A stretch of 64,000 nt of DNA, taken from an uncultured Oscillospiraceae bacterium (GTDB lineage Bacteria > Bacillota > Clostridia > Oscillospirales > Oscillospiraceae). Shown one piece after another: positions 4,353 through 58,347 of the stretch (positions are counted from its first letter, which is position 1; the number at the start of each line of letters is the position of its first letter). Below the pieces are notes generated by a model. The model worked only from the letters and a program-made list of their open reading frames with translations. It ran no database searches and was not told where the DNA came from. The stretch spans positions 18 through 64,017 of the forward strand of contig CANRIW010000007.1 of the NCBI GenBank assembly GCA_947630785.1, written 5' to 3'. The translations under genes were made by a program, and so were the position numbers.

Positions 4353-4919
4353 TCAGCGACGGCAGGGGATGGGCCTGGGCGGGCACCGGGGCTTGATGGC
4401 GCCGGCAATCACGATGGCGTCCTCCTCACAGGCCTCTTTGCACTTTCCGCACTGGGTACACTCGTTCTGGTCGATGACGTGGACGAATTTGGCGCGGCCC
4501 TGGATGGCGTCGTCCTCGCAGGCGTCCATGCAGTCGCCGCAGCCCACGCACTTGTCGGCCAGGATGTGGTAGGTGACGAACCGCTTGCACACGCCGGCCT
4601 TGCAGCTCCGCTTGGCGATGTGCTGGGCGAATTCGTCGGCGTACTTCTCCATCACCGCCAGGGCGGTATCGGCCAGCTCCACGCCGTCCTCGCACAGCGC
4701 CTGGGTCTTCATCAGGCCGCACAGCTTGCGCAGCTGGTCCATGTCGGTGCTGCGGCTCTTCTTCATGGTGATGTCGTTCAGGGTCATCTCCAGCTGGGCG
4801 GCGCCCTCATAGCCGAAGACGCACTTGCCGCAGTCCAGGCATTTGTGGCCCCGGACGTATTTCAGCAGCTCGTCCACGGGGCAGCAGGTCTCAGGCAGGT
4901 TCAGCAATTTTTCCTCCAT
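4353..4919 (-). CDS. Fe-S protein: NuoF-type 4Fe-4S binding motif plus 2x[4Fe-4S] ferredoxin domain
   Basis: Start chosen at MEEKLL (TGATG overlap with the upstream stop). Motifs CGKCVFGYEG, CVGCGDCMDAC and CTQCGKCKEAC. Confidence 0.75.
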   Translation of the reverse strand: MEEKLLNLPETCCPVDELLKYVRGHKCLDCGKCVFGYEGAAQLEMTLNDITMKKSRSTDMDQLRKLCGLMKTQALCEDGVELADTALAVMEKYADEFAQHIAKRSCKAGVCKRFVTYHILADKCVGCGDCMDACEDDAIQGRAKFVHVIDQNECTQCGKCKEACEEDAIVIAGAIKPRCPPRPIPCRR

Positions 4920-7051: not shown

Positions 7052-7052
7052 A

Positions 7053-8531
7053 TCAGAAGCCCACCTTTGCCGCGGCGTTTTCACCGGCGATGCGGCCGGA
7101 GTTCAGGCAGAAGCCCATGGTGTTGCCGGACAGCACGAAGGGATAGGAGTCGCCGTAGATGGAGCAGGCGTCGGTGCCCACGCAGTACAGGCCGGGGATG
7201 GGACGGGCGTCCTCGTTCACGGCCTCCATCTTGTGGTTGATCTTCACGCCGCCCAGGGAGCCGTAGGCGCCCACGGTCTGGCGGCAGCAGTAGAAGGGCC
7301 CCTTCTCGACCTTCTGCATATAGGCGCGGTTCTTCTCGAACAGCTCGTCGTAGCCGGCGTCGCACATGGCGTTGTACTCCTCCACCTGAGCCACCAGGCC
7401 GTCCACGTCGATGCCGGCGTTTTTGGCCAGCTCCTCGATGGTGTCGCCCTGGGCGATGGGCTCGTAGCCGGCGGCCAGATCCCGCTCCCACTGCTCGTCG
7501 AAGTGGTCGTACAGGTCGTGGGGATGGACGTGGGAGATGATGTCAGGCCCGTGCTTCTTATAGCGCTTGAGGGCCTTGCTGTCGAAGATGGAGAAGGCCA
7601 CCTTGCCGGGGAGGTGGGAGATAGCGTTGCCGGTGAAGGTGGTGTTGCCGATCTGATCCTCGGGCATGAAGCGGTTGCCGTTGCGGTCTACCCACAGGCA
7701 GGGCTGACGGAAGGCACCCTCGATGATGAAGTGGTTCATGTTGTCAGGCAGCTGGTACATGATCTCCATGATGATAGGGGTCTTGGCGGCGCCCGCCTCC
7801 CAGCACATCTTCATGCCGTCGCCCTTCATGCCGGGCACGGCGAAGTTGAAGATGGTCTTGCCGAACTCGAAGCCGGTGTACTCCTTGATCATCTCCGGGT
7901 TGTCGCCAAAGCCGCCGGTGGCCACGATGGTGGAGGGCGCGCGGCACTCGATCTCCTCGCCGCTCTTGTCCACGGCGACCACGCCCACCACGGCGCCGTC
8001 CTCCTGGATGAGCTTCTTCACGGGGGTCTCCAGATAGAACTCCACACCCAGGCTCTGGGCGTACTCGGTCATCTTCTTCATCATGCCGGAGGCGGCGCGG
8101 GGGCCGGGAACGCCGCCGCCCTCGGGCTTGCAGACGTGCCAGGTGAACTCGCCGTCAGAGTAGGGGCGGGTGGCCTCGTCCGCGCCGAAGGCCCGCTGCA
8201 CGCCCACGAACTCCACGCCCATGTTGCACAGCCAGTCGATGGTGTCGCCGGACTTGAAGTAGTAGTCCCGCACCAGGCGGGGGTCCACATGGTAGTGGGT
8301 GAAATACATGTGCTTGCGGAAAGCCTCGATGGGGCTCAGGGGGATCATGTGCTCACGCTGGATGCGGGAGCCCACGCCCAGGGGGCCCATGCCCATGTTG
8401 GCGGCGCCGCCGGTGGTGCTGGCCTTCTCAAAGCAGACCACTCGGGCGCCCCCCTCGGCGGCGGCGCAGCAGGCGGCCAGACCACTCAGGCCCGCGGCCA
8501 CGACGATGACATCGGTTTCCAGTTGCTTCAT
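7053..8531 (-). CDS. FAD-dependent oxidoreductase, fumarate reductase / urocanate reductase / KstD-like (FAD_binding_2)
   Basis: 492 aa. N-terminal DVIVVAAGLSGLAAC GxGxxG, a central capping domain, and C-terminal GLYCVGTDA. AAGGAGG RBS. Confidence 0.85.
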   Translation of the reverse strand: MKQLETDVIVVAAGLSGLAACCAAAEGGARVVCFEKASTTGGAANMGMGPLGVGSRIQREHMIPLSPIEAFRKHMYFTHYHVDPRLVRDYYFKSGDTIDWLCNMGVEFVGVQRAFGADEATRPYSDGEFTWHVCKPEGGGVPGPRAASGMMKKMTEYAQSLGVEFYLETPVKKLIQEDGAVVGVVAVDKSGEEIECRAPSTIVATGGFGDNPEMIKEYTGFEFGKTIFNFAVPGMKGDGMKMCWEAGAAKTPIIMEIMYQLPDNMNHFIIEGAFRQPCLWVDRNGNRFMPEDQIGNTTFTGNAISHLPGKVAFSIFDSKALKRYKKHGPDIISHVHPHDLYDHFDEQWERDLAAGYEPIAQGDTIEELAKNAGIDVDGLVAQVEEYNAMCDAGYDELFEKNRAYMQKVEKGPFYCCRQTVGAYGSLGGVKINHKMEAVNEDARPIPGLYCVGTDACSIYGDSYPFVLSGNTMGFCLNSGRIAGENAAAKVGF

Positions 8532-8575: not shown

Positions 8576-9523
8576 TTACACAGTTTTGTACTTCATTTCC
8601 TTATAGCGGGGCATCTTTTCCTTGACGATCTCGAAGTTGTGGGGATCGCGGTAGAAGCTGCCCTCGGTGGTGCCAATCTCGTCCAGATGGAGGCCGCGGC
8701 CCGCCACGGTGGTGCGGTCTTTCAGGTGGCCGTTCTCCGGGTCGATGACGAACTTCCACTTGCCGTCCTCTTCCTTCAGCACGCCGCCGCAGCCGCACAC
8801 CTGGCACTCCACCTTGTAGTAGGTGCCGTCCCACTGGGGTTCGCCCAGGGACAGGGAGTTGGAGTGGCAGTGGGGGCACCAGCCGAAGTCGGGGTCGCCC
8901 TCCCAGCCCCGGTCCTTGGGATCCTTGCTCAGGGAGCGCATGATGTTCTCACCCATCTTGTGGGCCCGCTCGATGAGGTCGGGCCGGGTGAGCACATGGC
9001 CCTTGGCGGGGACGCGGGTGGCCAGGATCATGTCCACCACGTTGAAGTCGCAGGTGAACATGGCGGCCTGCATATTCTCCAGGGACATGGACATCCAGGC
9101 GCGGGTGGAACCGCCGGTGGTGATCAGGCCGGCGATGCGGTGCTTGGGCTTGATGGCGCCGATCTTCTCCAGGAAGGCGGTCTCATAGGCCAGGGAGCGC
9201 TGCATGAACCGGGTGAAGTTGGCCGAAACCTGCAGATCGTAGGTGGGAGCGGCGAAGATGAACGCGTCGTTCTCGAACATGGCCTGCATCAGCTTGTCTT
9301 TGTCGTCCAGGTTCTTCAGCACGCAGCCCACGTTCTCGCCCTTCATGAACATCCCCTGAGTGCAGTGGGTGCAGCCGGTGCAGTCGATGATCTTGTAGTC
9401 GCTCAGGTTGACGTAGGTGATCTCCGCCCCCAGCTCCTGGCAGGCCAGCAGAGCCTCTTTTGTCAGGATCTCGCTGTTGCCGTCCTTGCGTCCTCCGCAG
9501 ACGCCCATCACTTTGAATGCCAT
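8576..9523 (-). CDS. Flavodoxin-fold FMN reductase / iron-sulfur flavoprotein (Isf)-like with C-terminal Cys4 zinc-ribbon-like extension
   Basis: 315 aa. Compact Cys motif CTGCTHC...C near the N-terminus. NADPH-dependent FMN reductase-like core. C-terminal CPHC...CQVCGC. AGGAGG RBS. Confidence 0.8.
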   Translation of the reverse strand: MAFKVMGVCGGRKDGNSEILTKEALLACQELGAEITYVNLSDYKIIDCTGCTHCTQGMFMKGENVGCVLKNLDDKDKLMQAMFENDAFIFAAPTYDLQVSANFTRFMQRSLAYETAFLEKIGAIKPKHRIAGLITTGGSTRAWMSMSLENMQAAMFTCDFNVVDMILATRVPAKGHVLTRPDLIERAHKMGENIMRSLSKDPKDRGWEGDPDFGWCPHCHSNSLSLGEPQWDGTYYKVECQVCGCGGVLKEEDGKWKFVIDPENGHLKDRTTVAGRGLHLDEIGTTEGSFYRDPHNFEIVKEKMPRYKEMKYKTV

Positions 9524-9870: not shown

Positions 9871-11130
9871 TCAGACGGTCTCCTCCCGCTCCTCATAGTC
9901 CCCGGAGAAGCGCTCCAGGTAATCCAAAAGCCGGAAGGAGAACTCATAGTCGAACAGCCGCTCCCCGTCGTGCATCAGGTCGGTCCCGACCAACTCCGAT
10001 ATTTTTCCCATGCGGAAAAAAAACGTGCTCTTGTGGATAAACAGAGCGGCGGCGGCCCGGGCCGAGCTCCGGTTTTCCTGCAGGAACGCCCGGATGGTGT
10101 CCATGTAGTGGCTGTCGTGTTCTCCGTCGTACCGGCGGAGCAGTTCGATGTCCGGGTGGATCATGGTCCGCAGATGCTCTGCGTCCCCCGCCCGGGAGAA
10201 CAGGTGGAAGAGATGGGACCTGGCGTAACCTCCCAGCCGCTCACCCTTTGGCAAGGCTTCCAGCGCGGCCTTGGTCTGCTCCCAGGCATAGCGTGCCATG
10301 GTCAGAGAGGTGAAGCGGTAGCTGAACGCCGCCCGCATCTGATTGAACTCCAGGAATTTTCCCAGGGCCACCGCCTCCTGATCGCTGAGCGGCGCGATCC
10401 CGCTTCGGGGCAGCAGCATACACATCCGCCCGTGGACGATGCCCACAAGACACCCGGGAAACATGGCCTGGAGCTGGTCAAAGAAATAACTTCCGGAGGG
10501 TCGGGTGCTCACGTCGTCAAAGGTGAATTCCGCCAGAAAATAATAGCGCTGCGGCTGGATCTTGAGCTGCCGTAGCCGCTGTACGGCGAACTGGTCGCCT
10601 TTGAGCCGGCCCTCCAGCAGCTCCGAGAGGAAATACTCATATTTCACGCCGCTCTCAGTGGCAAAGAAGTCCTGCTTCTGCATCTCGATGGAGAGGACCT
10701 GAGACAGATATTCGACCAGATCCAGCTCCTCGGGGAAAAAGCCCTCCGGCCGCCCGGGGGAGAAGATGTAGGCCACCATGGCCTGATTGATGCGGATGGA
10801 CTGGAACAGGATGGGGCAGGGGAAGCGCGGATCGGTGGACACGCTGGGCCGGGTGCTTTCCAAAAGGCGCTTCACGTGCCGCTTTTCGTCCATCTCCAGG
10901 GTCACGCCGAAGCGCACGAACTGCCGTCCGCCGGAGGTGACCAGGTTTTTCTCGTCGTCAATGTCGGGACAGGTGGCCAGCACCGCGAAGCTGGAGCTGC
11001 ACAGGCTGAACTGCAGGCCGGTGGCGTCGTGGGCGATCTGCAGGAACTGCCGCAGCTGGGTCTTGGTCTGCAGGGCCCGGAACAGCTCATCCTTGGCCCG
11101 CCGCAGCCGCTCTGGGGTCATCCGTTCCAT
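9871..11130 (-). CDS. PucR/CdaR-family transcriptional regulator
   Basis: Start chosen at MERMTPE (GAGGAG RBS). C-terminal PucR-type HTH (RSSARAAAALFIHKSTFFFRMGKISELVG). Located immediately upstream of the operon on the same strand. Confidence 0.8.
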   Translation of the reverse strand: MERMTPERLRRAKDELFRALQTKTQLRQFLQIAHDATGLQFSLCSSSFAVLATCPDIDDEKNLVTSGGRQFVRFGVTLEMDEKRHVKRLLESTRPSVSTDPRFPCPILFQSIRINQAMVAYIFSPGRPEGFFPEELDLVEYLSQVLSIEMQKQDFFATESGVKYEYFLSELLEGRLKGDQFAVQRLRQLKIQPQRYYFLAEFTFDDVSTRPSGSYFFDQLQAMFPGCLVGIVHGRMCMLLPRSGIAPLSDQEAVALGKFLEFNQMRAAFSYRFTSLTMARYAWEQTKAALEALPKGERLGGYARSHLFHLFSRAGDAEHLRTMIHPDIELLRRYDGEHDSHYMDTIRAFLQENRSSARAAAALFIHKSTFFFRMGKISELVGTDLMHDGERLFDYEFSFRLLDYLERFSGDYEEREETV

Positions 11131-11268
11131 CCGACTCGCTCCTCTCTTGTTTTTCGGGAACAGTTTATCACGCTTTGCCCGCGGTTTCAAGCCCTTCCCG
11201 CTCCTTCCGCGCTTGACAGCCGACCCCGTTCTGTGCTACCATCTTCAAAAAGCCAAGGGGGAGTCGGC

Positions 11269-47789: not shown

Positions 47790-47825
47790 AAAAGCGCCCT
47801 CTCTGACACAGAGAGGGCGCTTTTG
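47790..47825. terminator. Bidirectional hairpin terminator
   Basis: AAAAAGCGCCCTCTC TGACACA GAGAGGGCGCTTTT between the convergent M32 and MFS genes. Confidence 0.8.
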
Positions 47826-47845: not shown

Positions 47846-49072
47846 TCAGGGCTTGCGGATGAGCAGGTTCAGCACCAGGGCCGCCACCGACAGACACAGC
47901 AGCAGGATGAAGGGGGCGATATACCCGCCGGAGGAGGTGAGCAGGGCGCTGGAGGCGGTGGCCATGAAGGAGGCACCCATCAGGTTGAAGTTCATGATAG
48001 AGAAGTTGGTGGGGAAGTACTTGGTGCCGTAGAAGGCGGAGGTGAAGGCGGAGGTGACGGTGGGGCAGGAGCCGTAGGACAGGCCGGTGAGGCACAGGCC
48101 CACGATGCAGAGGGGCAGGGAGTGGACCAGCACGGCCACCAGGGTGATGCCGGCGGCGGCGATGGTGAGGATGTTGGCGGCCAGCATGGTCATCCGGCGG
48201 CCCAGGGAGTCGAAAAACGCGCCGGTGAGGATGCGGCCCAGGCCGTTGCACACCGACAGGACGCCCACCAGCACGGTGGCCAGCTCCAGCGTGGCGCCCA
48301 CGGACTGGGACAGCTGGCTGGCGAAGCTGATGACCGAGTTGCCCACGGCGGCCAGGAAGATGATGCACACGAAGGCCATCCAGAAGGAGGGACGGCGGAT
48401 CATTTCCACTGTGGTGTAGTCCTTTGGCTCAAAGCTCTCGCCGCCGGCCGCGGCCTTGGCCTTGGGCTGGGGGAACTGGGTGCCCTCGGGAGGCTTGCGG
48501 AGGACCAGGCCGGCGATGACCAGCACCACGCCCAGGGAGATGCCCAAAAAGCGGAAGGCGAACCGCCAGCCGATGTCGGCATTGCGGATGAAGGAGCCGG
48601 CCAGATTGCCCAGCACCAGGGCGGAGGCGCCGAAGCCCATCAGCAGCACGCCGGAGCAGAGGCCCTTCTTGTCGGGGAACCAGGCGCTGACGGTGGAGAG
48701 AATCACGTTGTAGGCAAAGCCGATGCCGGTGCCCGCCATGATGCCGTAGAACAGGTACAGCAGCACCACGCTGGAGCCGGACAGGGTGGAGGTCAGCACC
48801 AGGCCGGCGGCGGCGATGAGGCCGGCCACGATGATGGACACGGCCACGCCCAGGCGCTTGCTCAGGATACCGGCCAGAAAGGCGCCGATGCAGAAGAAGC
48901 ACATGGTCAGGGTGAAGTTCAGGGCCATGTTGTTGGCGGCCCAGCCGAACTCGGCCTCCAGGGGGGCGCGGAGGATGGACCAGGCGTAGATGATGCCGGC
49001 GAACAGCATGGCGGCCGTGCCGATGACCAGATAGAGCCAGCGAATGGACAGCTTTTGGGTGGAGTTGTTCAT
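47846..49072 (-). CDS. MFS transporter, oxalate/formate antiporter (OFA)-like
   Basis: Start at MNNSTQK (GAGGTG RBS 6 nt upstream). 12-TM pattern with a central hydrophilic loop. Confidence 0.8.
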   Translation of the reverse strand: MNNSTQKLSIRWLYLVIGTAAMLFAGIIYAWSILRAPLEAEFGWAANNMALNFTLTMCFFCIGAFLAGILSKRLGVAVSIIVAGLIAAAGLVLTSTLSGSSVVLLYLFYGIMAGTGIGFAYNVILSTVSAWFPDKKGLCSGVLLMGFGASALVLGNLAGSFIRNADIGWRFAFRFLGISLGVVLVIAGLVLRKPPEGTQFPQPKAKAAAGGESFEPKDYTTVEMIRRPSFWMAFVCIIFLAAVGNSVISFASQLSQSVGATLELATVLVGVLSVCNGLGRILTGAFFDSLGRRMTMLAANILTIAAAGITLVAVLVHSLPLCIVGLCLTGLSYGSCPTVTSAFTSAFYGTKYFPTNFSIMNFNLMGASFMATASSALLTSSGGYIAPFILLLCLSVAALVLNLLIRKP

Positions 49073-49137
49073 AAATAGCACCTCATTGTTTGATTTGTCT
49101 ATGTAAAGGAGCGAATGTCCGAGTTTTCAGAGTGAGA

Positions 49138-50094
49138 TCACGGGATCAGATGGGCCAGCGCCACCGCCCAGACGGGGATGGTCACCGCGGAGAACAGGGT
49201 GGACAGCAGCACCGTGGCCGCCGCCTGGAACTGGCTCTCCCGGTCGGGGTCGTACTGGATGGTGAAGGCCGCCAGCAGGGAGGGCACCGGCAGGGCGGCG
49301 AACATGACCGCCACATGGGCCAGCTCCGCGTCCAGCCGGGTGAGCAGGCACAGACCCAGGGTCAGGGCGGGGAGGGCCAGGTTGCGCACCAGGGGGATGA
49401 GGAAATACTTGAGCCTCAGCAGCTTTTTGAAGTCGTACCGGCTGAGGGAGATGCCGCAGAGCACCATCCCCAGCGGGGAGGCGCAGCCCCCCAGGGAGTT
49501 GATGACGCCGGATACCGGCGCGGGCAGGGGCAGCTGGGTCACGTACAGGATCAGGCCGATAAACACGGCGATGACCGGCGCGGAGAACCAGCCTTTGATC
49601 TGCTCCGCCAGGGTCTTTTTCCGGCGCTCCGTTCCCGGCGGGGAGAGGAAGGGCTCGGCGGAGCTGTAGTAGATCATCCGGTAGGGCACCAGGAACACCA
49701 CGAAGTAGAACACGCCCTGGTCGCCGTAGAGGGCCTCCATCACCGGGATGCCCACGAAGGTGAAGTTGGTGTACATGCAGCTGAACCGCATCTGCCGGGC
49801 GGAGGTGGTCTTTCCCATGGCCAGGTACAGCCCCTGGCCCACGGCGAAGGTGATGGCCCACAGGATCAGCGCTAGGATCACCAGCCGGCCGCAGTTGATG
49901 AGCTCCTCCCAGGAGAAGTCCCCCAGCATGGAGCGGACGATCATGCAGGGCAGACACAGCTTCATCAGGAAGGAGGTCAGCGGCTTGTCGAAGTCGGCGG
50001 AGACGATCTTCAGGCGGACGGCCAGGATGCCGGCCCCCACCATGAGGATCAGCTGGATGGCCAGGGAGATGGATTGCTGGGCGGCGGCGGACAT
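49138..50094 (-). CDS. AEC (auxin efflux carrier) family transporter
   Basis: 318 aa polytopic, two 5-TM halves. Family resemblance (membrane transport protein, PF03547-like). Confidence 0.75.
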   Translation of the reverse strand: MSAAAQQSISLAIQLILMVGAGILAVRLKIVSADFDKPLTSFLMKLCLPCMIVRSMLGDFSWEELINCGRLVILALILWAITFAVGQGLYLAMGKTTSARQMRFSCMYTNFTFVGIPVMEALYGDQGVFYFVVFLVPYRMIYYSSAEPFLSPPGTERRKKTLAEQIKGWFSAPVIAVFIGLILYVTQLPLPAPVSGVINSLGGCASPLGMVLCGISLSRYDFKKLLRLKYFLIPLVRNLALPALTLGLCLLTRLDAELAHVAVMFAALPVPSLLAAFTIQYDPDRESQFQAAATVLLSTLFSAVTIPVWAVALAHLIP

Positions 50095-50133
50095 GTAAAA
50101 ACCCCTTTCGGGTCAAGGTGGAACGGCAGGGAT

Positions 50134-50163
50134 GCCGGGCGGAAAGAAACCTTCCCGCCCGGC
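50134..50163 (-). other. Strong intercistronic hairpin without a U-tract
   Basis: Minus strand: GCCGGGCGGGAA GGTTTC TTTCCGCCCGGC (12 bp including one G-U). Lies between the zinc-ribbon gene and the AEC transporter gene. Confidence 0.6.
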
Positions 50164-50189
50164 AATCCCGTATTTGGTAAAACTAATTG

Positions 50190-50381
50190 TCAGTCCTCGA
50201 CTTCCTCGTACTCGAAGTCGTCCAGGGTGCGGGCGCCGTTTTTCTCAAAGACACCTTCGGCCCCGCAGGCGGGGCACCGGCCGAACTGGTCCTGGAAGTA
50301 CGCGATCAGGTCCTCCGCGTACTTGAACTTCTTGCCGCAGTCCGGACAGTGATAGTACATCAGGTTGACGCCCCAGCTCAT
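50190..50381 (-). CDS. Small zinc-ribbon protein (CxxC...CxxC) with an acidic tail
   Basis: 63 aa. CPDCGKKF...CPACGAEG, C-terminal DDFEYEEVED. The start is 3 nt after the BKACE stop (TGATCCATG). Confidence 0.6.
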   Translation of the reverse strand: MSWGVNLMYYHCPDCGKKFKYAEDLIAYFQDQFGRCPACGAEGVFEKNGARTLDDFEYEEVED

Positions 50382-50384
50382 GGA

Positions 50385-51233
50385 TCACTTCAGGCCCAGG
50401 ATCTGGCGGGCCTCGTCGGGGGTGGCGGGCTGGCGGCCATACTCCTTGATGACCCGGACGGCCCGCTCTACGAACTGGCTGTTGCTGTCGGCCAGCACGC
50501 CCTTGGAGTACATCACGTTGTCCTCCATGCCCACGCGGATGTGGCCGCCCAGGGCCACGGCGCCGTAGAGCATCTCCATGGCGGAGTGGCCCACGCCGAA
50601 GCAGCTCCAGGTGGAGCCCGGGCACAGCTGCTCCATGGTCTCCTTCATGAAGATCAGGTTCTTCATGCTGCCGGGGATGCCGTTGGCGCAGCCCATGCAG
50701 AACTGGAAGTGCAGGGGGGCCTTCAGCACGCCCTTCTTCAGATAGTAGGCGGCGTTGGCGATCATGCCGGGGTCAAAGGCCTCGATCTCAGGTTTGACGC
50801 CCCACTCCTGCATGTTCTTGCCCAGCTCCTCCAGGAACTTGGGGGGGTTAAGGAACAGGCTGGTGTGCAGCCAGTTCATGGAGCCGCAGTCATAGGAGCC
50901 CATCTCGGGGCGCAGCTCCTTCAGGTGGATCTGGCGGGTCTCCTCGGTGGCGTTCAGGTCGCCGGAGGTGGTCAGATTCAGGACGATGTCGCAGTCGGGG
51001 TGATTGGTCTTCAGCAGCTCCACCGTCTTGGCGAACTTGTTGTGGTCCATGGTGCCGTTGCCGTTGTCATCCCGCATGTGCAGATGGGCGACGGCGGCGC
51101 CGGCCTTCCAGCAGGTGTACACGTCCTCGGAGATCTCCTCGGGGGTCATGGGCACGTTGGGGTTGTTCTCCTTCTTGGGCCACGCGCCGGTGGGGGCCAC
51201 AGTGATGATGCACTTGTTCTTCAGATCAGCCAT
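50385..51233 (-). CDS. BKACE family enzyme (3-keto-5-aminohexanoate cleavage enzyme-like, DUF849)
   Basis: 282 aa. N-terminal IITVAPTG....P.TPEEI, plus AHLH.RD and HIRVGMED motifs characteristic of Kce/BKACE TIM-barrel Zn enzymes. Confidence 0.85.
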   Translation of the reverse strand: MADLKNKCIITVAPTGAWPKKENNPNVPMTPEEISEDVYTCWKAGAAVAHLHMRDDNGNGTMDHNKFAKTVELLKTNHPDCDIVLNLTTSGDLNATEETRQIHLKELRPEMGSYDCGSMNWLHTSLFLNPPKFLEELGKNMQEWGVKPEIEAFDPGMIANAAYYLKKGVLKAPLHFQFCMGCANGIPGSMKNLIFMKETMEQLCPGSTWSCFGVGHSAMEMLYGAVALGGHIRVGMEDNVMYSKGVLADSNSQFVERAVRVIKEYGRQPATPDEARQILGLK

Positions 51234-51262
51234 GGGAAACAGTCCTTTCTGTCAAATTCCAT

Positions 51263-51296
51263 GGAAGTGCGGGCGCTTTCCAGCGCCCGCACTTCC
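51263..51296 (-). other. Strong intercistronic hairpin
   Basis: GGAAGTGCGGGCGC / GCGCCCGCACTTCC, a 14-bp perfect stem with a 6-nt loop. Lies between the cyclase-family and BKACE genes. Confidence 0.6.
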
Positions 51297-51311
51297 GTGT
51301 GGTCAGAAAAC

Positions 51312-52325
51312 TTACTTGTTGCGGCTGAACAGCTTCTGGATGTACTCCAGGCAGGAGTCGCCGTTGCCGTCGGCGGTGCCGTAGCCGGTGCCGCCGTACT
51401 TGTAGGTGCGGGTGGGGACGCCGGGGACCAGCAGGTCCTCGTCGATCTCGGCGGAGCAGCGGGCCATGGAGCCGTCGCCCATGTACCAGCGCAGGGGGAA
51501 GCAGTTGAAGCGGAACCACACGCCGGCGGGGATCTTGTCCAGGTCGCCGCCCAGGTTCTCCACGCCCACGATGCCGTGGCCCAGCATCTCCTTGTGGCAG
51601 GGCTCCCAGGTGCCCCACACGCCGATGTTCTCCAGGTCGCCGTACAGCTCGTCATAGGCCTTCTGGCCGAAGATGCGGATGTACTCGAACTTGTCGAACT
51701 TGGCATAGGCCTCCTCGCCGAACAGCTCCTTGTACTCCTCGGTGATGGGCTTGCCGGTGGCGCCCAGCAGGTTCATGCGGGTCATGCCGTTGTTGCCCAT
51801 GGCGGTGTGCAGGGGGTGATCCAGCGCCTGGCTGTCCATGGCCACGCACTTGACCTTGTTCTTCACGAACCACTTGCCGGCCTCCACGCCGGTACCGGCG
51901 GCATAGTGATAGTAGGCCTTGGAGTCGTCGAACAGGCGGTGCATGCCGGTGTTCAGGCAGAGGACCTTGCCCTCCAGGTCGGCCTGGTTCACGCCGTACT
52001 TCTCGCAGGCGGCGTCCAGGTGCTTGTCGGTGATGAGGCCCCAGGGCTCGATGTCGATCTTCAGCACGATGGCGGTGCCGGTGTAGGCGTCGATGGGCAT
52101 CTCGTCGCTGTAACGGGCGCGGCGGCCGTCGAACTCATACTCCATCACGTGACGGGGGGCGTCGCAGTGGGTGCCGGTGTGCATGGTGCACTTGATGCTC
52201 TGGGTCAGCACGCCGCCCTTGGCCATGGAGTGGGCACCCACGATCTCGGGCTTGTCAAAATAGGGCCAGCGGGGGATCTCAGCGCCAAAGGGGTGGGTCA
52301 GGTCAACGAAAACAGTCTTGCCCAT
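51312..52325 (-). CDS. Putative cyclase family protein (kynurenine formamidase / isatin hydrolase-like metal amidohydrolase)
   Basis: 337 aa. HTGTHCDAPRH motif (HxGTHxDxPxH). Late FPLRW..GDGSMARC segment. AGGAGG RBS. Confidence 0.8.
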   Translation of the reverse strand: MGKTVFVDLTHPFGAEIPRWPYFDKPEIVGAHSMAKGGVLTQSIKCTMHTGTHCDAPRHVMEYEFDGRRARYSDEMPIDAYTGTAIVLKIDIEPWGLITDKHLDAACEKYGVNQADLEGKVLCLNTGMHRLFDDSKAYYHYAAGTGVEAGKWFVKNKVKCVAMDSQALDHPLHTAMGNNGMTRMNLLGATGKPITEEYKELFGEEAYAKFDKFEYIRIFGQKAYDELYGDLENIGVWGTWEPCHKEMLGHGIVGVENLGGDLDKIPAGVWFRFNCFPLRWYMGDGSMARCSAEIDEDLLVPGVPTRTYKYGGTGYGTADGNGDSCLEYIQKLFSRNK

Positions 52326-52361
52326 GGTAATCGTTCCTCCTAAAAATATTTTTTGTGTGTC

Positions 52362-53288
52362 TTACTTGCCGTAGAGCATCCTGATGAGATACTCGTTCAG
52401 GTCGGCGTTCTCCTTGGCGATCTGCTCGGGGGTCCACTTCATGAAGCCCTCGCCGGACTTGAAGCCCATCTTGCCCTCGTCCAGCATCTGCTTGAGCAGG
52501 GGGGACGGCTCGTGGGAGTCCTCCAGATCCTTCAGGATGTAGTCGTGGATGTTGTAGGTGAGCTGGGTGCCCACCATGTCGCTGTTGGTCAGCGGGCCCA
52601 GCTGGGGCAGCCGCAGGCCGAAGGCGTACCGGACGGCCTTGTCCACCGTCTCGGGATCGGCGATGCCCCGCTCCACGATGGAGATGGCCTCACGCCACAG
52701 GGCGTGCTGCATACGGTTGGCGATGAAGCCGGGGACGTCCTTCTTGCACAGCACGGGCTCCTTGCCCACGCTGGCCAGCACGTCCATGACGGTCTGGGCC
52801 ACCTCGTCGGAGGAGGCGTCGGACTTGACCACCTCCACCAGGGGGATCAGATGGCCGGGGTTCCAGAAGTGGGTGCCCACGAAGCGCTCCCGGTGCTGGA
52901 GTTCGGCGCTGATCTCGCTGGGGCTCATGACGGAGGAGTTGGTGCAGAAGATGGTGTCGGGCCGGCAGCGGGCCTCCAGCTTGGCGAAGGTCTCCCGCTT
53001 GATCTTCATGTCCTCGAACACGGCCTCGATGACGAAGTCGGCGGAGGAGACCAGGGGGGAGTCGATGTCGGTGGTGAACTGGATGCGGCTCAGGCGGTCC
53101 TCCACGTCGGCCTCGGTGAGGACGCCGTGGTCCACCAGCTGTTTGGTGTTGGTGCGGATGCCGCCGTACACGTCGGTCTGGTACAGGTCATAGACCGCGA
53201 TCTGATAGGCGGGGTTGGAGGCGAACACGAAGGCGATGTTCTTGCCCATCATGCCGCCGCCGCAGATCAATACGTTTTTGATCTCCAT
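52362..53288 (-). CDS. 3-hydroxyacyl-CoA dehydrogenase family NAD-dependent dehydrogenase
   Basis: 308 aa. ICGGGMMGKNIA Rossmann motif, THFWNP and GFIANR motifs of the HADH family. Confidence 0.85.
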   Translation of the reverse strand: MEIKNVLICGGGMMGKNIAFVFASNPAYQIAVYDLYQTDVYGGIRTNTKQLVDHGVLTEADVEDRLSRIQFTTDIDSPLVSSADFVIEAVFEDMKIKRETFAKLEARCRPDTIFCTNSSVMSPSEISAELQHRERFVGTHFWNPGHLIPLVEVVKSDASSDEVAQTVMDVLASVGKEPVLCKKDVPGFIANRMQHALWREAISIVERGIADPETVDKAVRYAFGLRLPQLGPLTNSDMVGTQLTYNIHDYILKDLEDSHEPSPLLKQMLDEGKMGFKSGEGFMKWTPEQIAKENADLNEYLIRMLYGK

Positions 53289-53303
53289 GAAGGGCCTCCC
53301 GGA

Positions 53304-54098
53304 TCACACCACCAGATAGCCGCCGGAGCAGTCGGCGTTGCTGCCGGTGATGAAGTCGGAGGCGGCGGAGGACAGGAACAGCGCGTAGCCCACGAAGTCG
53401 GCGGGCTCGCCCAGGCGGCCGATGGGCTCCCGGTTCAGGAAGTTCTTGTACACGGCGGACTCGGGGTCGAACATCCACTCGGTCAGGTCGGAGCGGAACA
53501 CGGTGGGGCAGATGGAGTTGACGTTGATGCCGTACTTGGCGGTCAGGTCGCAGGCCAGGCAGGAGACCATCAGGTCGGCGCCGCCCTTGGAGGTGCAGTA
53601 GCCGGTGTAGCCCGCCATGCCGCGCTTGGAGCGCTGGGAGGTGACGACCACCATCTTGCCGCCCTTGCCCTGGGCCACCATCTGGTGGGCCACATACTTG
53701 GTGACGATGTAGACGCTCTTGCAGTCGGCGTCCATGATGTACTGCCAGTCGGCCACGGACTGCTCCAGCACGTTCTGGGGCTTGTTGAAGCCGTGGGCCA
53801 CGGCCAGGATGTTGATCTCGCCGTACTTGGCCACGCAGGCCTTGATGAGGGCGTCCACGTCCTCTTCCTTGGCGGGGTCGGCCACATAATAGGCGCAGTC
53901 GATGCCCTCGGCCTTGAACTCGTCCTCCAGGGCCTTCAGCTTCTTGTCGTTCCGGCCGGTCATGAAGACCTTGGCGCCGGCGTAGCCGTAAGCCTTGGCC
54001 AGCACGCAGCCCAGAGCGCCGGTGGCGCCGGTGACCAGGGCGACCTTGCCCTCAACGGAGAACATATTCTGCACGAAACTCTTTTCCACGGGAACCAT
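53304..54098 (-). CDS. SDR-family oxidoreductase
   Basis: 264 aa. TGATGALG cofactor motif and a YCTSK (YxxxK) catalytic motif. AAGGAGG RBS. Confidence 0.85.
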
Positions 54099-54137
54099 GG
54101 GAAATTCCTCCTTTATAAATTCAGTTGAGCGAGTGGC

Positions 54138-54488
54138 TCACGCGTCGGGATAGTTGATGATGACCAGCATCTTGGCGGGCTTGCCGGACTCGTTCTTCAG
54201 GCCGCGGCCCTCGTTGGGGGGGAAGGAGATGGACTCGCCGGGATGGAGCACATAGACGTTGCCGTCCTTGTCGGTGACGGTCATCTCGCCCTCGAGGATG
54301 AAGTAGACCTTCTCCAGCGGGTTGTCCTCATAGGCCCAGTCGGCGCCGCCGCCCGGCTCGAACTCGGAGATGCCGATCCAGAACTTGGTGGCGCCGGTCT
54401 CGTCCTTGCCGTGATAGCGCTTGCAGGTCACGCCGAAATGTCCGGGGGGGAAGTAGGGCTGGAGCTCCTCATAGGTACGCTTGATCAT
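54138..54488 (-). CDS. Cupin-domain protein
   Basis: 116 aa. Single cupin barrel (G..W....E..YFILEGEM...G....L.PGESI). First gene of the operon. AGGAAAGGAAG RBS. Confidence 0.7.
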   Translation of the reverse strand: MIKRTYEELQPYFPPGHFGVTCKRYHGKDETGATKFWIGISEFEPGGGADWAYEDNPLEKVYFILEGEMTVTDKDGNVYVLHPGESISFPPNEGRGLKNESGKPAKMLVIINYPDA

Positions 54489-54553
54489 GATGGATCTTCC
54501 TTTCCTGATTAGTCTGGTTCACCCGCTTGAAAGGGTGCGGGGATACTGCTTAT

Positions 54554-54582
54554 ATAATAAAATCCTTTGGAGTTTTCTGCAA
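54554..54582 (-). promoter_or_regulatory. Putative sigma-70 promoter of the cupin-to-transporter operon
   Basis: Minus strand: TTGCAG, 17-nt spacer, TATTAT. About 65 nt upstream of the cupin ATG, in an AT-rich divergent region. Confidence 0.4.
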
Positions 54583-54766
54583 TACCAACCAAAATGTAAG
54601 TACCTCATCGAAAAGGGGGTGTTTGAAGGGGGAAAACGGCTGTTTTTTGGATATAATCCACAAAAATGCTGGCATAAGAATGGATGGATTGACGATTTTT
54701 ATAGAGGCTTGCACAAAATCTGCCAAGAAATTTCTGCACCTGTCCGAGCAGAGCCGCGCGGCCCTC

Positions 54767-54795
54767 TTGAAAACCGCCGGTCGATATGATAAACT
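54767..54795 (+). promoter_or_regulatory. Putative sigma-70 promoter of the HxlR-family regulator gene
   Basis: TTGAAA, 17-nt spacer, TAAACT, with a TG at the extended -10 position. Confidence 0.4.
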
Positions 54796-54834
54796 AAGAC
54801 CAAAATACGAGCTTTATGGACGAAAGGCGGAAAA

Positions 54835-55290
54835 ATGATGACGGAACAGCGGGAACAGAGGCCGGTAAATCCCTATCACTATGTGCAGCAGTGTATCGGC
54901 GGGAAGTGGAAGATGACCATTCTCCACGAGATCGATACCAACGGCTCCATTCGCTTCAACTATGCGGCGCGGGTGTTCCCCCTGTCGGAAAAGGTCCTGA
55001 GCCAGCAGCTGAAGGAATTGGTGGACGACGGTCTGGTCAAGCGCATCTCCTACGATGTGCTTCCGCCCAAGGTGTGTTATGAGCTCACTGAGGCGGGCAA
55101 AGCGCTCATGCCCGTGCTGGACGAGCTGTATATCTGGAGCGTCCGCCGGATGGACAAGCTGGGCATCCCCATTGACGCGGACGCCTTTGTGGTCCACCGG
55201 TCGGAGAAATATATGGACCCTTTGCGGGATGTGATGGAGAACTATGAGCTGCCCGAGGGGGAGACCCGGGACTACAAGCACAAGGGATAA
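54835..55290 (+). CDS. HxlR-family (MarR-like wHTH) transcriptional regulator
   Basis: 151 aa. C..C-less HxlR core GGKWKMTILHEI...LSQQLKELVDDGLV.R..Y...PPKV.YELTE.G. Divergent from the cupin operon. Confidence 0.85.
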   Translation: MMTEQREQRPVNPYHYVQQCIGGKWKMTILHEIDTNGSIRFNYAARVFPLSEKVLSQQLKELVDDGLVKRISYDVLPPKVCYELTEAGKALMPVLDELYIWSVRRMDKLGIPIDADAFVVHRSEKYMDPLRDVMENYELPEGETRDYKHKG

Positions 55291-55470
55291 CGGGTCTGCC
55301 TGACGGCCCTGCGGGCGGCTGTGAGCGGGCGCCGTGGTTCGGGAGCGCCTCTGCCCCCCGGCGTTGTGGCGCCGGGAGGTTAAAGAACCTTAAAGGAATC
55401 TTATGGCTTTCTGTCCTTCAACTTAAATCCGATCTGTTACCATGGCGTCATCTTCTCCGGGAGGTGCGCC

Positions 55471-56901: not shown

Positions 56902-56956
56902 GACTTATATTGGCCCGGCTCTCTCGAAAATGATCATAGACCAGTCCGATGGTAGC

Positions 56957-58063
56957 TTATGAGAACCACCAGCCAAAAAGCGGCGACAGCGGTATCATAA
57001 AAACCGAAAAGATCATAGACGAGACGGAGATGAGCGTTGCCCGCTGAGCGGACGGGAACCGGTCGTTCAGCTTCTTGTCGCTGATCAATTGCAGACTGTC
57101 ATCCAGAAGTCCCGCCAGCAGGCCGGAGACCATCAGCACCGGCAGGCACGTCCCCCGTGCCGCCAGGGCGCAGAGCAGAACGCCGCCTCCGGTGACGGCC
57201 GCCGCCTTCGGATAGGACAGGTGGTCCAGTCTGCCTGTCAGAAGTCCTGCCAGTCCGCCGCCCAGGTCCAGTGCGAACAGCGCCGGACCCAGCAGCGCGG
57301 GGACCGTCACCGCCGCCTCTACCTTCTCTTGCAGGTAAAACCCCGTCAGGGTCGCGCATACCCCCACCAGGGCGTTGAGCACCATGATCCGGACGGCCGT
57401 ACCGTCCGATCTGAGGAGCGTCCAGGCGCCCCGAATCGTCTCCGCCAGGGCGCCGGGTAACGTCCGTAGCGTGGGCCGGGGGGCGTCCCGCTCCGGCTCG
57501 GTGATGGCCAGCGCGGCCGCCAGACCGATGAGGGCCACGCCCGTGTCCAGCAGGTACGCCCGCCGCCAACCCAGGAGCACCGTAGCCCCCGCCAGCAGCA
57601 TCGCGGCGCCGCCGCTGAAGCGGTATACCCCGTTTTGCAGGGAGGAGAAGCTCAGATAACCCGTCTCCTGTCCCGCCTGGAGCATGGATTCATAGGTAAT
57701 GGACTCCCGCGTACCGGATTCCAGATTGTACCCGAGGGCGGAAACGGCCAGAGACAGACATACCCCGGCCATTCCCCGGGAGGCTGCCATCAGCAGGGTG
57801 GAGAGCACGAACATCACATGGCTGGCTGTCAGGGTCCGCTTCCGGCCCATCACGTCCGCCAGAAGTCCCGAAGGCAGTTCACAGCAAAAGCTCACGGTAT
57901 GGAACACCGCTTCCGCCAAGCCGATCTCCACCAGGGAGAACCCACGCAGAGCCAGCAGGAGGACCCACACGCTTCCCGCCGGGCGAAAGCCCACCGACCA
58001 TTCCAGGACCAGAAGGGCCAGCTTTTGTCTGGAAAGCGAGAATTGTTTGCTTTTTTTAGGCAT
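56957..58063 (-). CDS. MFS transporter
   Basis: Start chosen at MPKKSKQF (AAAGGA RBS). About 12 TM segments. D-R/K-x-G-R-K/R-like loop ADVMGRKR. Confidence 0.75.
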   Translation of the reverse strand: MPKKSKQFSLSRQKLALLVLEWSVGFRPAGSVWVLLLALRGFSLVEIGLAEAVFHTVSFCCELPSGLLADVMGRKRTLTASHVMFVLSTLLMAASRGMAGVCLSLAVSALGYNLESGTRESITYESMLQAGQETGYLSFSSLQNGVYRFSGGAAMLLAGATVLLGWRRAYLLDTGVALIGLAAALAITEPERDAPRPTLRTLPGALAETIRGAWTLLRSDGTAVRIMVLNALVGVCATLTGFYLQEKVEAAVTVPALLGPALFALDLGGGLAGLLTGRLDHLSYPKAAAVTGGGVLLCALAARGTCLPVLMVSGLLAGLLDDSLQLISDKKLNDRFPSAQRATLISVSSMIFSVFMIPLSPLFGWWFS

Positions 58064-58347
58064 AAAAAATGCGCCATCCTTTCTTTTTATCATAAAGAAA
58101 AGGATCGGCGCGACCAGTTATCGTGACCCGCGGTCACCGAAAAAAAGGCGCACTGATCCCATGGATGGCCAAATCATAGCCGTTAAAATGCAGGCTCAAG
58201 CCGTTCTGCATCCACCGCATCACCGCGCCCTCCTCTCATAAGATGGGAAAACTATAACATGAGCGGGCATGAAATGTCAAGAGGATCATGATCCAAGCCC
58301 ATTTTAAGCCTTTTGGCCGCCTTTTGACCGCCCCGGCAACTTTCTCC

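Follow-up and report, generated by a model that had tools for sequence, protein, structure and literature searches.

Phloroglucinol (1,3,5-trihydroxybenzene) is the ring fragment freed when gut bacteria degrade flavonoids and tannins. Zhou et al. described the four enzymes of its anaerobic degradation, phloroglucinol reductase (PGR), dihydrophloroglucinol cyclohydrolase (DPGC), (S)-3-hydroxy-5-oxohexanoate dehydrogenase (TfD) and triacetate acetoacetate-lyase (TAL), and the pathway was reconstituted in vitro (Zhou et al., mBio 2023, PMC10470551). The route leads from phloroglucinol through dihydrophloroglucinol, (S)-3-hydroxy-5-oxohexanoate and 3,5-dioxohexanoate (triacetate) to acetoacetate and acetoacetyl-CoA, the enzyme chemistry having been demonstrated on the C. 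scatologenes orthologues, which are encoded by CSCA_1082 (PGR), CSCA_1083 (DPGC), CSCA_1088 (TAL) and CSCA_1091 (TfD) (PMC10470551). Conservation of the cluster is reported for F. plautii, E. ramulus and E. oxidoreducens, M. tuberculosis appears among its carriers, and the supplementary tables include clusters of Oscillospiraceae, Lawsonibacter, F. plautii and the same Fusobacterium record that is compared here (PMC10470551). Also, the PGR of Clostridium sp. ATCC BAA-442 has been crystallised (5G4K/5G4L; Conradt et al. 2016), and an aldolase-dependent phloroglucinol pathway is attributed to Collinsella sp. zg1085 (Li et al., AEM 2024, as cited in PMC13039779).

We analysed a window of 64 kb, the whole stretch of DNA from an uncultured Oscillospiraceae bacterium, and found a region that, judging by sequence comparison, is very probably an operon for the anaerobic degradation of phloroglucinol. 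Its features are as follows.

54835-55290, plus strand: HxlR-family regulator, 151 aa (Pfam HxlR, 82 bits)
54489-54834: divergent control region between the cupin gene and hxlR, 346 nt, AT-richer
54767-54772 (TTGAAA), 17 nt, 54790-54795 (TAAACT), plus strand: putative hxlR promoter (consensus scan; conserved in the alignment)
54596-54603: putative single GTAAGTAC half-site, a short way upstream of the operon's -35 element
54582-54577 (TTGCAG), 17 nt, 54559-54554 (TATTAT), minus strand: putative operon promoter (conserved in the alignment)
54138-54488, minus strand: small cupin, 116 aa, first operon gene (Pfam Cupin_2)
53304-54098, minus strand: predicted PGR, an SDR (Pfam adh_short)
52362-53288, minus strand: predicted TfD (Pfam 3HCDH_N and 3HCDH)
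51312-52325, minus strand: predicted DPGC (Pfam Cyclase PF04199; HTGTHCDAPRH at residue 49)
50385-51233, minus strand: predicted TAL (Pfam BKACE PF05853, 354 bits)
50190-50381, minus strand: 63-aa zinc-ribbon protein (sequence pattern CxxC...CxxC)
49138-50094, minus strand: AEC-family permease (Pfam Mem_trans, 90 bits)
47846-49081, minus strand: MFS transporter, last operon gene (MFS_1; oxalate/formate-lactate, OFA/SfMCT-like group)
47797-47815, minus strand: putative terminator-like hairpin followed by a T-run (consensus scan)

The nine ORFs lie exactly where the preliminary description had placed them, and the Pfam search backs every domain family that it had named. The GC3 of the ORFs, leaving out the 63-aa one as too short, is 0.81-0.96, as typical for true genes in a 64% GC genome. 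The eight minus-strand genes are spaced by 3-95 nt, and the sole sensibly placed minus-strand terminator-like hairpin in the scan (47815-47797) comes directly after the last of them; it is predicted to be bidirectional, also serving a convergent M32 carboxypeptidase gene.

The enzyme families of the window pair one to one with the published cluster, and their predicted activities are assigned by orthology to the C. scatologenes enzymes. The window PGR shares 226 of 263 residues (86%) with the ATCC BAA-442 structures, entitled 'Phloroglucinol reductase from Clostridium sp.', and its segment T47-G48-R49-N50 is the same as in the crystallised enzyme. On this likeness, the SDR is predicted to be the NADPH-dependent dearomatising reductase of the entry step and not a side activity. 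DPGC, whose homologues were found in 539 species genomes, has Trp20 and Tyr22 at exactly the published positions together with the HxGTHxDxPxH motif. In TfD the catalytic Ser119, His140 and Asn191 are retained while Val and Leu replace the CoA-contacting Lys56 and Asn221 of C. butyricum HBD, the same loss having been described for CsTfD (PMC10470551); the earlier proposal of a HADH-family enzyme acting on a free beta-hydroxy acid is upheld. The Asp33 that closes beta-2 points to NAD+ as the preferred cofactor. Compared with tryptic peptides of the C. scatologenes enzymes, and not with full-length proteins, identity was 72% for DPGC (90 residues), 62% for TAL (109 residues) and 62% for TfD (103 residues). 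The CsTAL peptide TIITVAPTGAWPK pairs with CIITVAPTGAWPK of the window TAL, so that only one of 13 residues differs around Trp18.

The BKACE deserves separate attention, as its best NCBIfam and PDB matches are to the lysine-fermentation enzyme Kce (297 bits; 2Y7D, E = 6e-60). Both share the TIM-barrel fold and an acetyl-CoA-dependent reaction of the retro-Claisen/Claisen type in which acetoacetate is released, and the HLH and GMEDN segments recur in the window protein when it is aligned with Kce. These segments presumably hold the Zn ligands. However, Trp18 aligns with Glu14 of Kce, the residue that binds the 5-amino group, so the binding site for that group is absent; the score is also below the equivalog cut-off of 382 bits, and kamA, kamDE, kdd and kal-type families, sought among all called ORFs of the 64-kb window, were not found there, as had been noted before. 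The probability that this protein is Kce is therefore close to nil, in line with the preliminary description. It also scores below the cut-offs of the 3-oxoadipate (251 against 350 bits) and 3,5-dioxohexanoate (206 against 430 bits) models and so below every BKACE equivalog cut-off, which is why no curated NCBIfam model names it. The match to the last model, of 310 positions, falls into two stretches, which suggests that this model describes a longer BKACE clade. The expected cleavage of a beta-keto acid with acetyl-CoA, releasing acetoacetate, agrees with the orthology to TAL.

The preliminary description had seen in the region a route for some unknown beta-hydroxy or beta-keto acid, possibly of the sugar-acid or amino-hydroxy-acid kind, acted on by amide or lactam opening, then by the HADH-family enzyme and the BKACE. 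The domain families alone permit this, and NCBIfam gives no enzyme a specific name, but all four enzymes carry residue-level phloroglucinol signatures, with a PGR so close to the crystallised reductase, and we consider that reading very improbable. The oxidation and the BKACE cleavage stand, and so does a ring opening by the cyclase-family enzyme; the amide or lactam chemistry falls, since this family member has a demonstrated C-C hydrolase activity, the retro-Claisen hydrolysis of a cyclic beta-diketone (PMC10470551). Sugar-acid or amino-hydroxy-acid substrates found no support, and neither pathway nor substrate is new: the cluster matches a characterised route, as PMC10470551 already lists F. 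plautii and Oscillospiraceae clusters. There is a slim chance that the substrate is instead a substituted phloroglucinol (methyl-, acyl- or carboxy-) or another 1,3-dihydroxybenzene, with the cupin adding a step of trimming or isomerisation. In its favour, the cupin and the zinc ribbon are conserved yet fall outside the four assigned steps, and a second, more remote cluster of DPGC/TfD/TAL-like genes in F. plautii shows that the enzyme set has diversified. Yet the cupin also adjoins PGR in C. scatologenes, which was grown on and induced by phloroglucinol, and the identity to characterised enzymes (86% for PGR, >70% for DPGC) makes a shift to another substrate unlikely. Counted against the phloroglucinol reading itself are the absence of thiolase and CoA-transferase genes from the window operon, unlike in C. 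scatologenes, the identity of only about 60% to the C. scatologenes TAL and TfD peptides, and the BKACE scores below every equivalog cut-off.

Among 80 related loci we found DPGC in 80, PGR in 71, TfD in 67, TAL in 64, the cupin in 50, HxlR in 46 and the zinc ribbon in 44. The gene order is shared with dozens of Clostridia and with Fusobacterium, a recurrence which argues that the arrangement is not due to chance. In Fusobacterium it is identical, and a phloretin hydrolase gene (DAPG_hydrolase) adjoins it. The nearest relatives are MAGs of uncultured Oscillospiraceae, two out of three bearing the name 'Lapin', with a DNA identity of 93-96% in loci L001 and L003. C. scatologenes shares with the window the four families and their diagnostic residues, a cupin beside PGR, a linked transporter and regulator, and products leading to acetate/butyrate fermentation. 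It differs in that the window order is compact (cupin-PGR-TfD-DPGC-TAL-zinc ribbon), DPGC is of the long form (337 against 312 aa), the transporters are AEC and OFA-type MFS proteins, and peptide identity is about 60-72%. F. plautii is also a member of the Oscillospiraceae and has a DPGC of 337 aa, although both this bacterium and Clostridium sp. ATCC BAA-442 belong to a species and genus other than the window host. Collinsella sp. zg1085 has HxlR, cupin, PGR and DPGC in one block (cupin 72% and HxlR 52% identical to the window), whereas an aldolase and an aldehyde dehydrogenase replace TfD and TAL in its lower pathway and a zinc ribbon gene was not called.

Alongside the pathway genes, those for the cupin and the zinc-ribbon protein are conserved as well. 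The cupin gene is directly upstream of PGR in 50 of the 80 loci, with homologues of 69-90% identity in Collinsella, Fusobacterium and Lacrimispora; in C. scatologenes CSCA_1081 adjoins CSCA_1082, and its peptides were detected in gel-band proteomics (PMC10470551). The window cupin is without the canonical His metal ligands, and its AlphaFold model (pLDDT 89.5) has TM1459 and RemF as top structural matches. A small cupin of M. tuberculosis, Rv1717, is reported as a beta-galactosidase (PMC7873859; NCBIfam NF050094). The window protein aligns over its full length to this model (E = 2e-19, residues 8-115 against positions 8-112 of 113), although its 70 bits are far below the cut-off of 175 and the cluster context gives no hint of a galactosidase role. 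We take Rv1717 to lie inside the mycobacterial cluster Rv1714-Rv1718. The 63-aa protein (MSWG...CPxCG...CPxCG...acidic tail) reaches the cut-off of no Pfam or NCBIfam model and begins 3 nt downstream of TAL; a homologous small ORF directly follows TAL in 41 of the 62 loci with downstream sequence, and also in Fusobacterium.

The divergent HxlR-type protein is likely the regulator of the cluster. A homologue lies divergently upstream in 46 of 80 loci, with 61% identity in Fusobacterium, and is missing in the three closest relatives (L001-L003). The bin 54001-55000, which holds the intergenic region, has a GC of 0.54 against about 0.63-0.65 around it, and across 12 aligned intergenic regions from orthologous loci the two promoter-like elements are conserved, as is the ACTTAC/GTAAGT motif; their promoter and motif functions are putative. 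The transporters are less constant: the AEC permease is found in only 10 of 80 loci (64-98% identity in seven, L001-L003, L007, L013, L043 and L056) and the MFS protein in 12 (64-97% in six). The latter best matches oxalate/formate and lactate transporters in NCBIfam (SfMCT, 268 bits, below the cut-off of 320) and is only 23% identical to the Fusobacterium cluster MFS.

In the proposed route, phloroglucinol would be taken up possibly via the MFS and/or the AEC permease, the latter possibly serving product export instead, and reduced by PGR with NADPH to dihydrophloroglucinol. DPGC, with Mn2+, would open the ring by retro-Claisen hydrolysis to (S)-3-hydroxy-5-oxohexanoate, TfD would oxidise this free acid to triacetate, and TAL, with Zn2+, would convert triacetate and acetyl-CoA to acetoacetate and acetoacetyl-CoA, which would enter acetate/butyrate fermentation. 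The pathway is one already known, characterised in 2023, and the cluster is ordinary save for its three conserved companions, the cupin, the 63-aa zinc ribbon and HxlR.

The eight minus-strand genes from 54488 to 47846 and the divergent HxlR gene constitute, by orthology, a putative anaerobic phloroglucinol degradation cluster. The enzyme set of this pathway in C. scatologenes consists of an SDR, a cyclase-family enzyme, a HADH-family dehydrogenase and a BKACE (Zhou, Wei, Jiang, Jiao and Zhang, mBio 2023, PMC10470551). PGR, which is NADPH-dependent, forms dihydrophloroglucinol; DPGC, a Mn2+-dependent member of the cyclase family, opens the ring by retro-Claisen hydrolysis giving (S)-3-hydroxy-5-oxohexanoate; TfD, the triacetate-forming dehydrogenase of the HADH family, oxidizes this free acid to 3,5-dioxohexanoate; and TAL, a Zn2+-dependent BKACE, converts 3,5-dioxohexanoate and acetyl-CoA into acetoacetate and acetoacetyl-CoA (PMC10470551). 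The four enzymes suffice in vitro; these activities, as well as induction by phloroglucinol, have been shown for the C. scatologenes orthologues only (PMC10470551). The nine reading frames lie exactly at the coordinates of the preliminary description, and Pfam and NCBIfam agree with it on their domains; they are the following:

54835-55290, plus strand: HxlR regulator (Pfam)
54489-54834: control region between the HxlR and cupin genes
54138-54488, minus strand: cupin (Cupin_2)
53304-54098, minus strand: SDR, candidate PGR
52362-53288, minus strand: two-domain 3-hydroxyacyl-CoA-dehydrogenase-family enzyme, candidate TfD
51312-52325, minus strand: cyclase-family enzyme (PF04199), candidate DPGC
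50385-51233, minus strand: BKACE (PF05853, 354 bits in Pfam), candidate TAL
50190-50381, minus strand: 63-aa CxxC...CxxC zinc-ribbon protein, no family above cut-off in Pfam or NCBIfam
49138-50094, minus strand: AEC/Mem_trans permease
47846-49081, minus strand: MFS transporter of the oxalate/formate-lactate group

The four pathway genes are contiguous on one strand, and 3-95 nt separate neighbouring genes among the eight. A terminator-like hairpin after the last gene (47815-47797) is the only sensibly placed one on the minus strand. The ORFs, apart from the 63-aa one, which is under the size limit of this listing, have a third-position GC of 0.81-0.96, a range that genuine genes should show when the genome has ~64% GC. 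The flanking genes are unrelated and encode UvrA, a small multidrug-export protein, a histidine phosphatase, an M32 carboxypeptidase, a glycosyltransferase, another MFS and peptide chain release factor 2 (UvrA and the release factor were identified by reading ORF translations), and an Rfam scan of the whole window gave no match. At the window start, ~45 kb from the operon, lie an acetate/butyrate-kinase-family gene (143-1243, minus strand) and a phosphate acetyl/butyryl-transferase gene (1247-2245, minus strand); these are general fermentation genes outside the cluster, that would handle acyl-CoA products.

The pathway assignment follows from the correspondence of the four window enzymes with the published set, since every published diagnostic feature that can be read from sequence is present in them. 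The SDR, which is the dearomatising entry step of the pathway, shares 226 of 263 residues (86%) with PDB 5G4K/5G4L, entitled "Phloroglucinol reductase from Clostridium sp."; this title was reached by a fold search with a single-sequence model of pLDDT 43, which served solely for that. The entry corresponds to the enzyme of Conradt et al. 2016, cited in PMC10470551. The NADPH 2'-phosphate motif, T-R-S/N in the notation of PMC10470551, reads FMTGRN (T47, R49, N50) in the window PGR, the same as in the crystallised enzyme. In the substrate pocket, Trp20 and Tyr22 separate DPGC from isatin hydrolase, which has Ile/Leu there (PMC10470551); the window DPGC carries W20 and Y22 at the same numbering, and both residues, as well as the metal-site motif HTGTHCDAPRH that begins at residue 49, are invariant across 12 homologues. 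TfD is described as keeping the catalytic Ser/His/Asn of C. butyricum (S)-3-hydroxybutyryl-CoA dehydrogenase without its Lys56 and Asn221 (PMC10470551); by alignment to 4KUE/4KUG, the window TfD has S119, H140 and N191, with Val in place of Lys56 and Leu in place of Asn221. No entry named as C. scatologenes came out of a cluster look-up with ten DPGC homologues, and the comparison with this species was made through tryptic peptides from the proteomics supplement of PMC10470551, not full-length sequences. Identity was 72% over 90 residues for DPGC, 62% over 103 residues for TfD and 62% over 109 residues for TAL, in which the CsTAL peptide TIITVAPTGAWPK corresponds to CIITVAPTGAWPK in the window.

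Two other assignments of the BKACE were considered. The first is the Kce of lysine fermentation, whose HLH and GMEDN segments are kept; at the position of Glu14 of Kce (PDB 2Y7D), the window protein has W18, and a Trp there is the TAL signature (PMC10470551). Its score against NF052387 is 297 bits, below the cut-off of 382, and none of the kamA, kamDE, kdd and kal gene families is found among the ORFs called in the 64-kb window, so we rejected Kce, in line with the preliminary description, which had already noted the absence of the partner genes. The window TAL scores under the cut-offs of all other NCBIfam BKACE equivalogs as well, even of the one with 3,5-dioxohexanoate in its name. This model, NF053538 (3,5-dioxohexanoate:acetyl-CoA acetone transferase, 310 positions), gives 206 bits in two stretches versus the 430 required. 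It seems to represent a longer type of BKACE, and the window TAL another, shorter clade; the window TAL is therefore not a member of NF053538, although the substrate name coincides. Presumably, the origin of NF053538 is the in-vitro BKACE survey by Bastard et al. 2014. For the cyclase-family enzyme, an amide or lactam hydrolase role was dropped in favour of the published C-C hydrolase, DPGC: the ring opening that had been proposed holds, and the bond broken is C-C. Likewise, the TfD and TAL steps agree with the proposal that a free beta-hydroxy acid is oxidized and the product then cleaved by the BKACE. The substrate had been considered unknown, and here the cluster matches the characterised phloroglucinol pathway, the kind of outcome that the preliminary description itself had named as speaking against its view. 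The database labels of the cluster genes (Kce, kynurenine formamidase, 3-hydroxyacyl-CoA dehydrogenase, gluconate 5-dehydrogenase) are misleading.

Conservation of the phloroglucinol cluster extends to F. plautii, E. ramulus and E. oxidoreducens, a transporter and a regulator are often found alongside it, and supplementary tables already catalogue clusters from Oscillospiraceae, Lawsonibacter, F. plautii, Collinsella sp. zg1085, M. tuberculosis and the Fusobacterium record that we examined (PMC10470551). The window cluster therefore adds one more Oscillospiraceae carrier to a known pathway whose clusters have been catalogued, which is not news. Its residual interest is in the cupin, the zinc ribbon and the HxlR regulator, conserved components of which there is no discussion in the main text of PMC10470551 (the word "cupin" is absent from it) and whose functions we infer. 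We searched for DPGC relatives in one genome per species and found them in 539 genomes; the best 80, mostly labelled as Oscillospiraceae or other Clostridia, were used for synteny counts and confirmed that the gene neighbourhood is conserved. These counts are lower bounds because contig ends cut many loci.

Homologues of the operon genes in the best 80 loci (each count to be read as at least)
DPGC: 80/80
PGR: 71/80
TfD: 67/80
TAL: 64/80
Cupin: 50/80
Divergent HxlR: 46/80
Zinc ribbon: 44/80
MFS: 12/80
AEC: 10/80

The closest loci (L001-L003) are from uncultured Oscillospiraceae MAGs, with DPGC 98-99% identical to that of the window and a DNA identity over the aligned operon of 93-96% for L001 and L003 and 92% for L002. 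The four-enzyme set recurs in Fusobacterium, Lacrimispora and a Paenibacillaceae-labelled MAG. The Fusobacterium locus keeps the same order, with HxlR divergent and then cupin-PGR-TfD-DPGC-TAL-62-aa protein, and a phloretin hydrolase gene adjoins it; Lacrimispora aerotolerans and the Paenibacillaceae-labelled MAG have cupin-PGR-DPGC-TAL with thiolase, CoA transferase and phloretin hydrolase. The window MFS has 23% identity to that of the Fusobacterium cluster and the two are not orthologous, so transporter identity is not a conserved feature; AEC and MFS homologues are cluster-linked only in a subset of Oscillospiraceae loci, and the roles of both permeases are guesses. In F. plautii there is another DPGC/TfD/TAL-like trio, more distant and only 38-48% identical to the C. 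scatologenes enzymes; its cyclases have 260 aa, and no PGR match is listed for that cluster (PMC10470551 supplement). This trio, which may act on a different cyclic dione, is absent from the window.

We also found two TfD lineages, only ~52% identical to each other, at the same position of clusters that otherwise share 85-96% identity (window 52362-53288 versus L007:8974-9915, L021, L043, L013, L020 and L035, loci from related genomes). The window type reads ...IAVYDL..., with an Asp at the end of beta-2, NAD-like, and the other type ...VTLKTR..., with basic residues, NADP-like. From these motifs, the lineages look like NAD+- and NADP+-preferring forms, and they may match the contrast, discussed for E. 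oxidoreducens and P. acidigallici, between physiologies that produce NADH and NADPH. Such a split would bear on the need of the degrader for an external electron donor. In the Fusobacterium cluster (L082:12329-14596), a gene between those of the zinc ribbon and the MFS encodes a 755-aa NfnA-like/NfnB-like fusion with NAD_binding_1, DHODB_Fe-S_bind, Fer4_20 and Pyr_redox_2 domains, which would fit the regeneration of NADPH for PGR from the NADH of an NAD-type TfD.

Elsewhere in the window, a 315-aa FMN_red/flavodoxin-like protein (8576-9523, minus strand) is a distant homologue of PDB 7D38 (E = 9e-29), a code given in the paper on the F. plautii flavone reductase FLR, and shares with it a Cys-rich CPHCHS...C..CG segment. 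Its neighbours are a FAD_binding_2 flavoprotein (7053-8531), a 2Fe-2S/4Fe-4S/Pyr_redox_2 protein (4919-7084) and a PucR-type regulator (9871-11190), all on the minus strand. A PucR and FMN_red pair flanks the phloroglucinol cluster in Lacrimispora and the Paenibacillaceae-labelled MAG. This neighbourhood may be another polyphenol ene-reductase module.

The HxlR regulator (PF01638; DUF24/MarR-type) scores 82.2 bits, with a gathering score of 20.8, and shares 61% identity with the cluster-linked HxlR of Fusobacterium and 52% with that of Collinsella, high values for regulators from different phyla. Neither of these orthologues conserves Cys20 of the window protein, which argues against a thiol-based sensing mechanism. 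Twelve orthologous control regions have two divergent promoter-like elements in common, and in most of them a set of ACTTAC/GTAAGT repeats lies immediately upstream of the -35 box of the operon. The arrangement of the relatives, ACTTAC-N6-GTAAGT-N19-ACTTAC, is reduced to one half-site in the window, so no operator can be assigned; an inverted-repeat search of the window control region yielded only a GC-rich palindrome (54750-54765). L001-L003 are collinear with the window on both sides and do not have the HxlR gene and control region (compared at 54510-55385), nor the 378-aa MFS gene at 56957-58093 (compared at 56905-58322). A spacer of ~270-330 nt in L001 and L003, and of 884 nt in L002, replaces the HxlR segment; its promoter-like element (TTGCAA, 17 nt, TATCAT) differs from that of the window. 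Lineages that are very close to one another have thus exchanged or lost the regulatory module.

The zinc-ribbon gene starts 3 nt past TAL, and a homologue (MSWG...CPxCG...CPxCG...acidic tail) directly follows TAL in 41 of 62 loci, and also in Fusobacterium. This position is kept where TAL is not immediately behind DPGC, as in locus L044, and the protein could be a TAL partner.

The cupin homologues listed, including those of Collinsella, Fusobacterium and Lacrimispora, are 69-90% identical, with H17, R24, H26, E30, Y53, E59, K60, E93, R95 and N99 invariant. The HxH...E...H metal-binding motif of TM1459-like and quercetinase-like cupins is not found, the canonical His ligands being missing; in a mapping made by eye, without structural superposition, W-A-Y-E-D...E and P-N-E-G-R stand at the motif positions. 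The predicted model is a confident cupin fold (TM-score ~0.8 to TM1459), and the fold search with it recovered generic cupins only (TM1459, RemF polyketide cyclase, DddK), from which no function follows. The cupin is not universal, and HxlR directly adjoins PGR in many loci. In C. scatologenes, CSCA_1081 (cupin) adjoins CSCA_1082 (PGR), and its peptides appear in gel-band proteomics data (PMC10470551). It accompanies PGR and DPGC in the TAL variant as well as in the aldolase variant, in Oscillospiraceae, Fusobacterium, C. scatologenes and Collinsella sp. zg1085, where HxlR is also present. The phloroglucinol pathway of the latter reportedly has an aldolase instead of TfD and TAL; the retention of the cupin there suggests that it acts in the upper steps, which both variants share. 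That the published four-enzyme pathway is incomplete, with the cupin as a fifth functional component on its upper part, is a tentative and rather doubtful idea; one possibility is a keto-enol tautomerase that would provide DPGC, which is slow (kcat ~1 s-1 in vitro), with dihydrophloroglucinol in the diketo form. The best NCBIfam match of the cupin, full length and far below cut-off, is NF050094, the Rv1717-type "beta-D-galactosidase". M. tuberculosis Rv1717 would lie inside the phloroglucinol cluster of that species, the PGR/TfD/DPGC/TAL block Rv1714-Rv1718. If so, its galactosidase annotation deserves a second look, and if the cupin were a fifth component, the "beta-galactosidase" label would probably be wrong.

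The pathway gives strict anaerobes access to the carbon of the phenolic ring of flavonoids and tannins, which is turned into acetate and butyrate, and is relevant for gut health, the hydrogen and methane balance of the rumen and carbon storage in peat.
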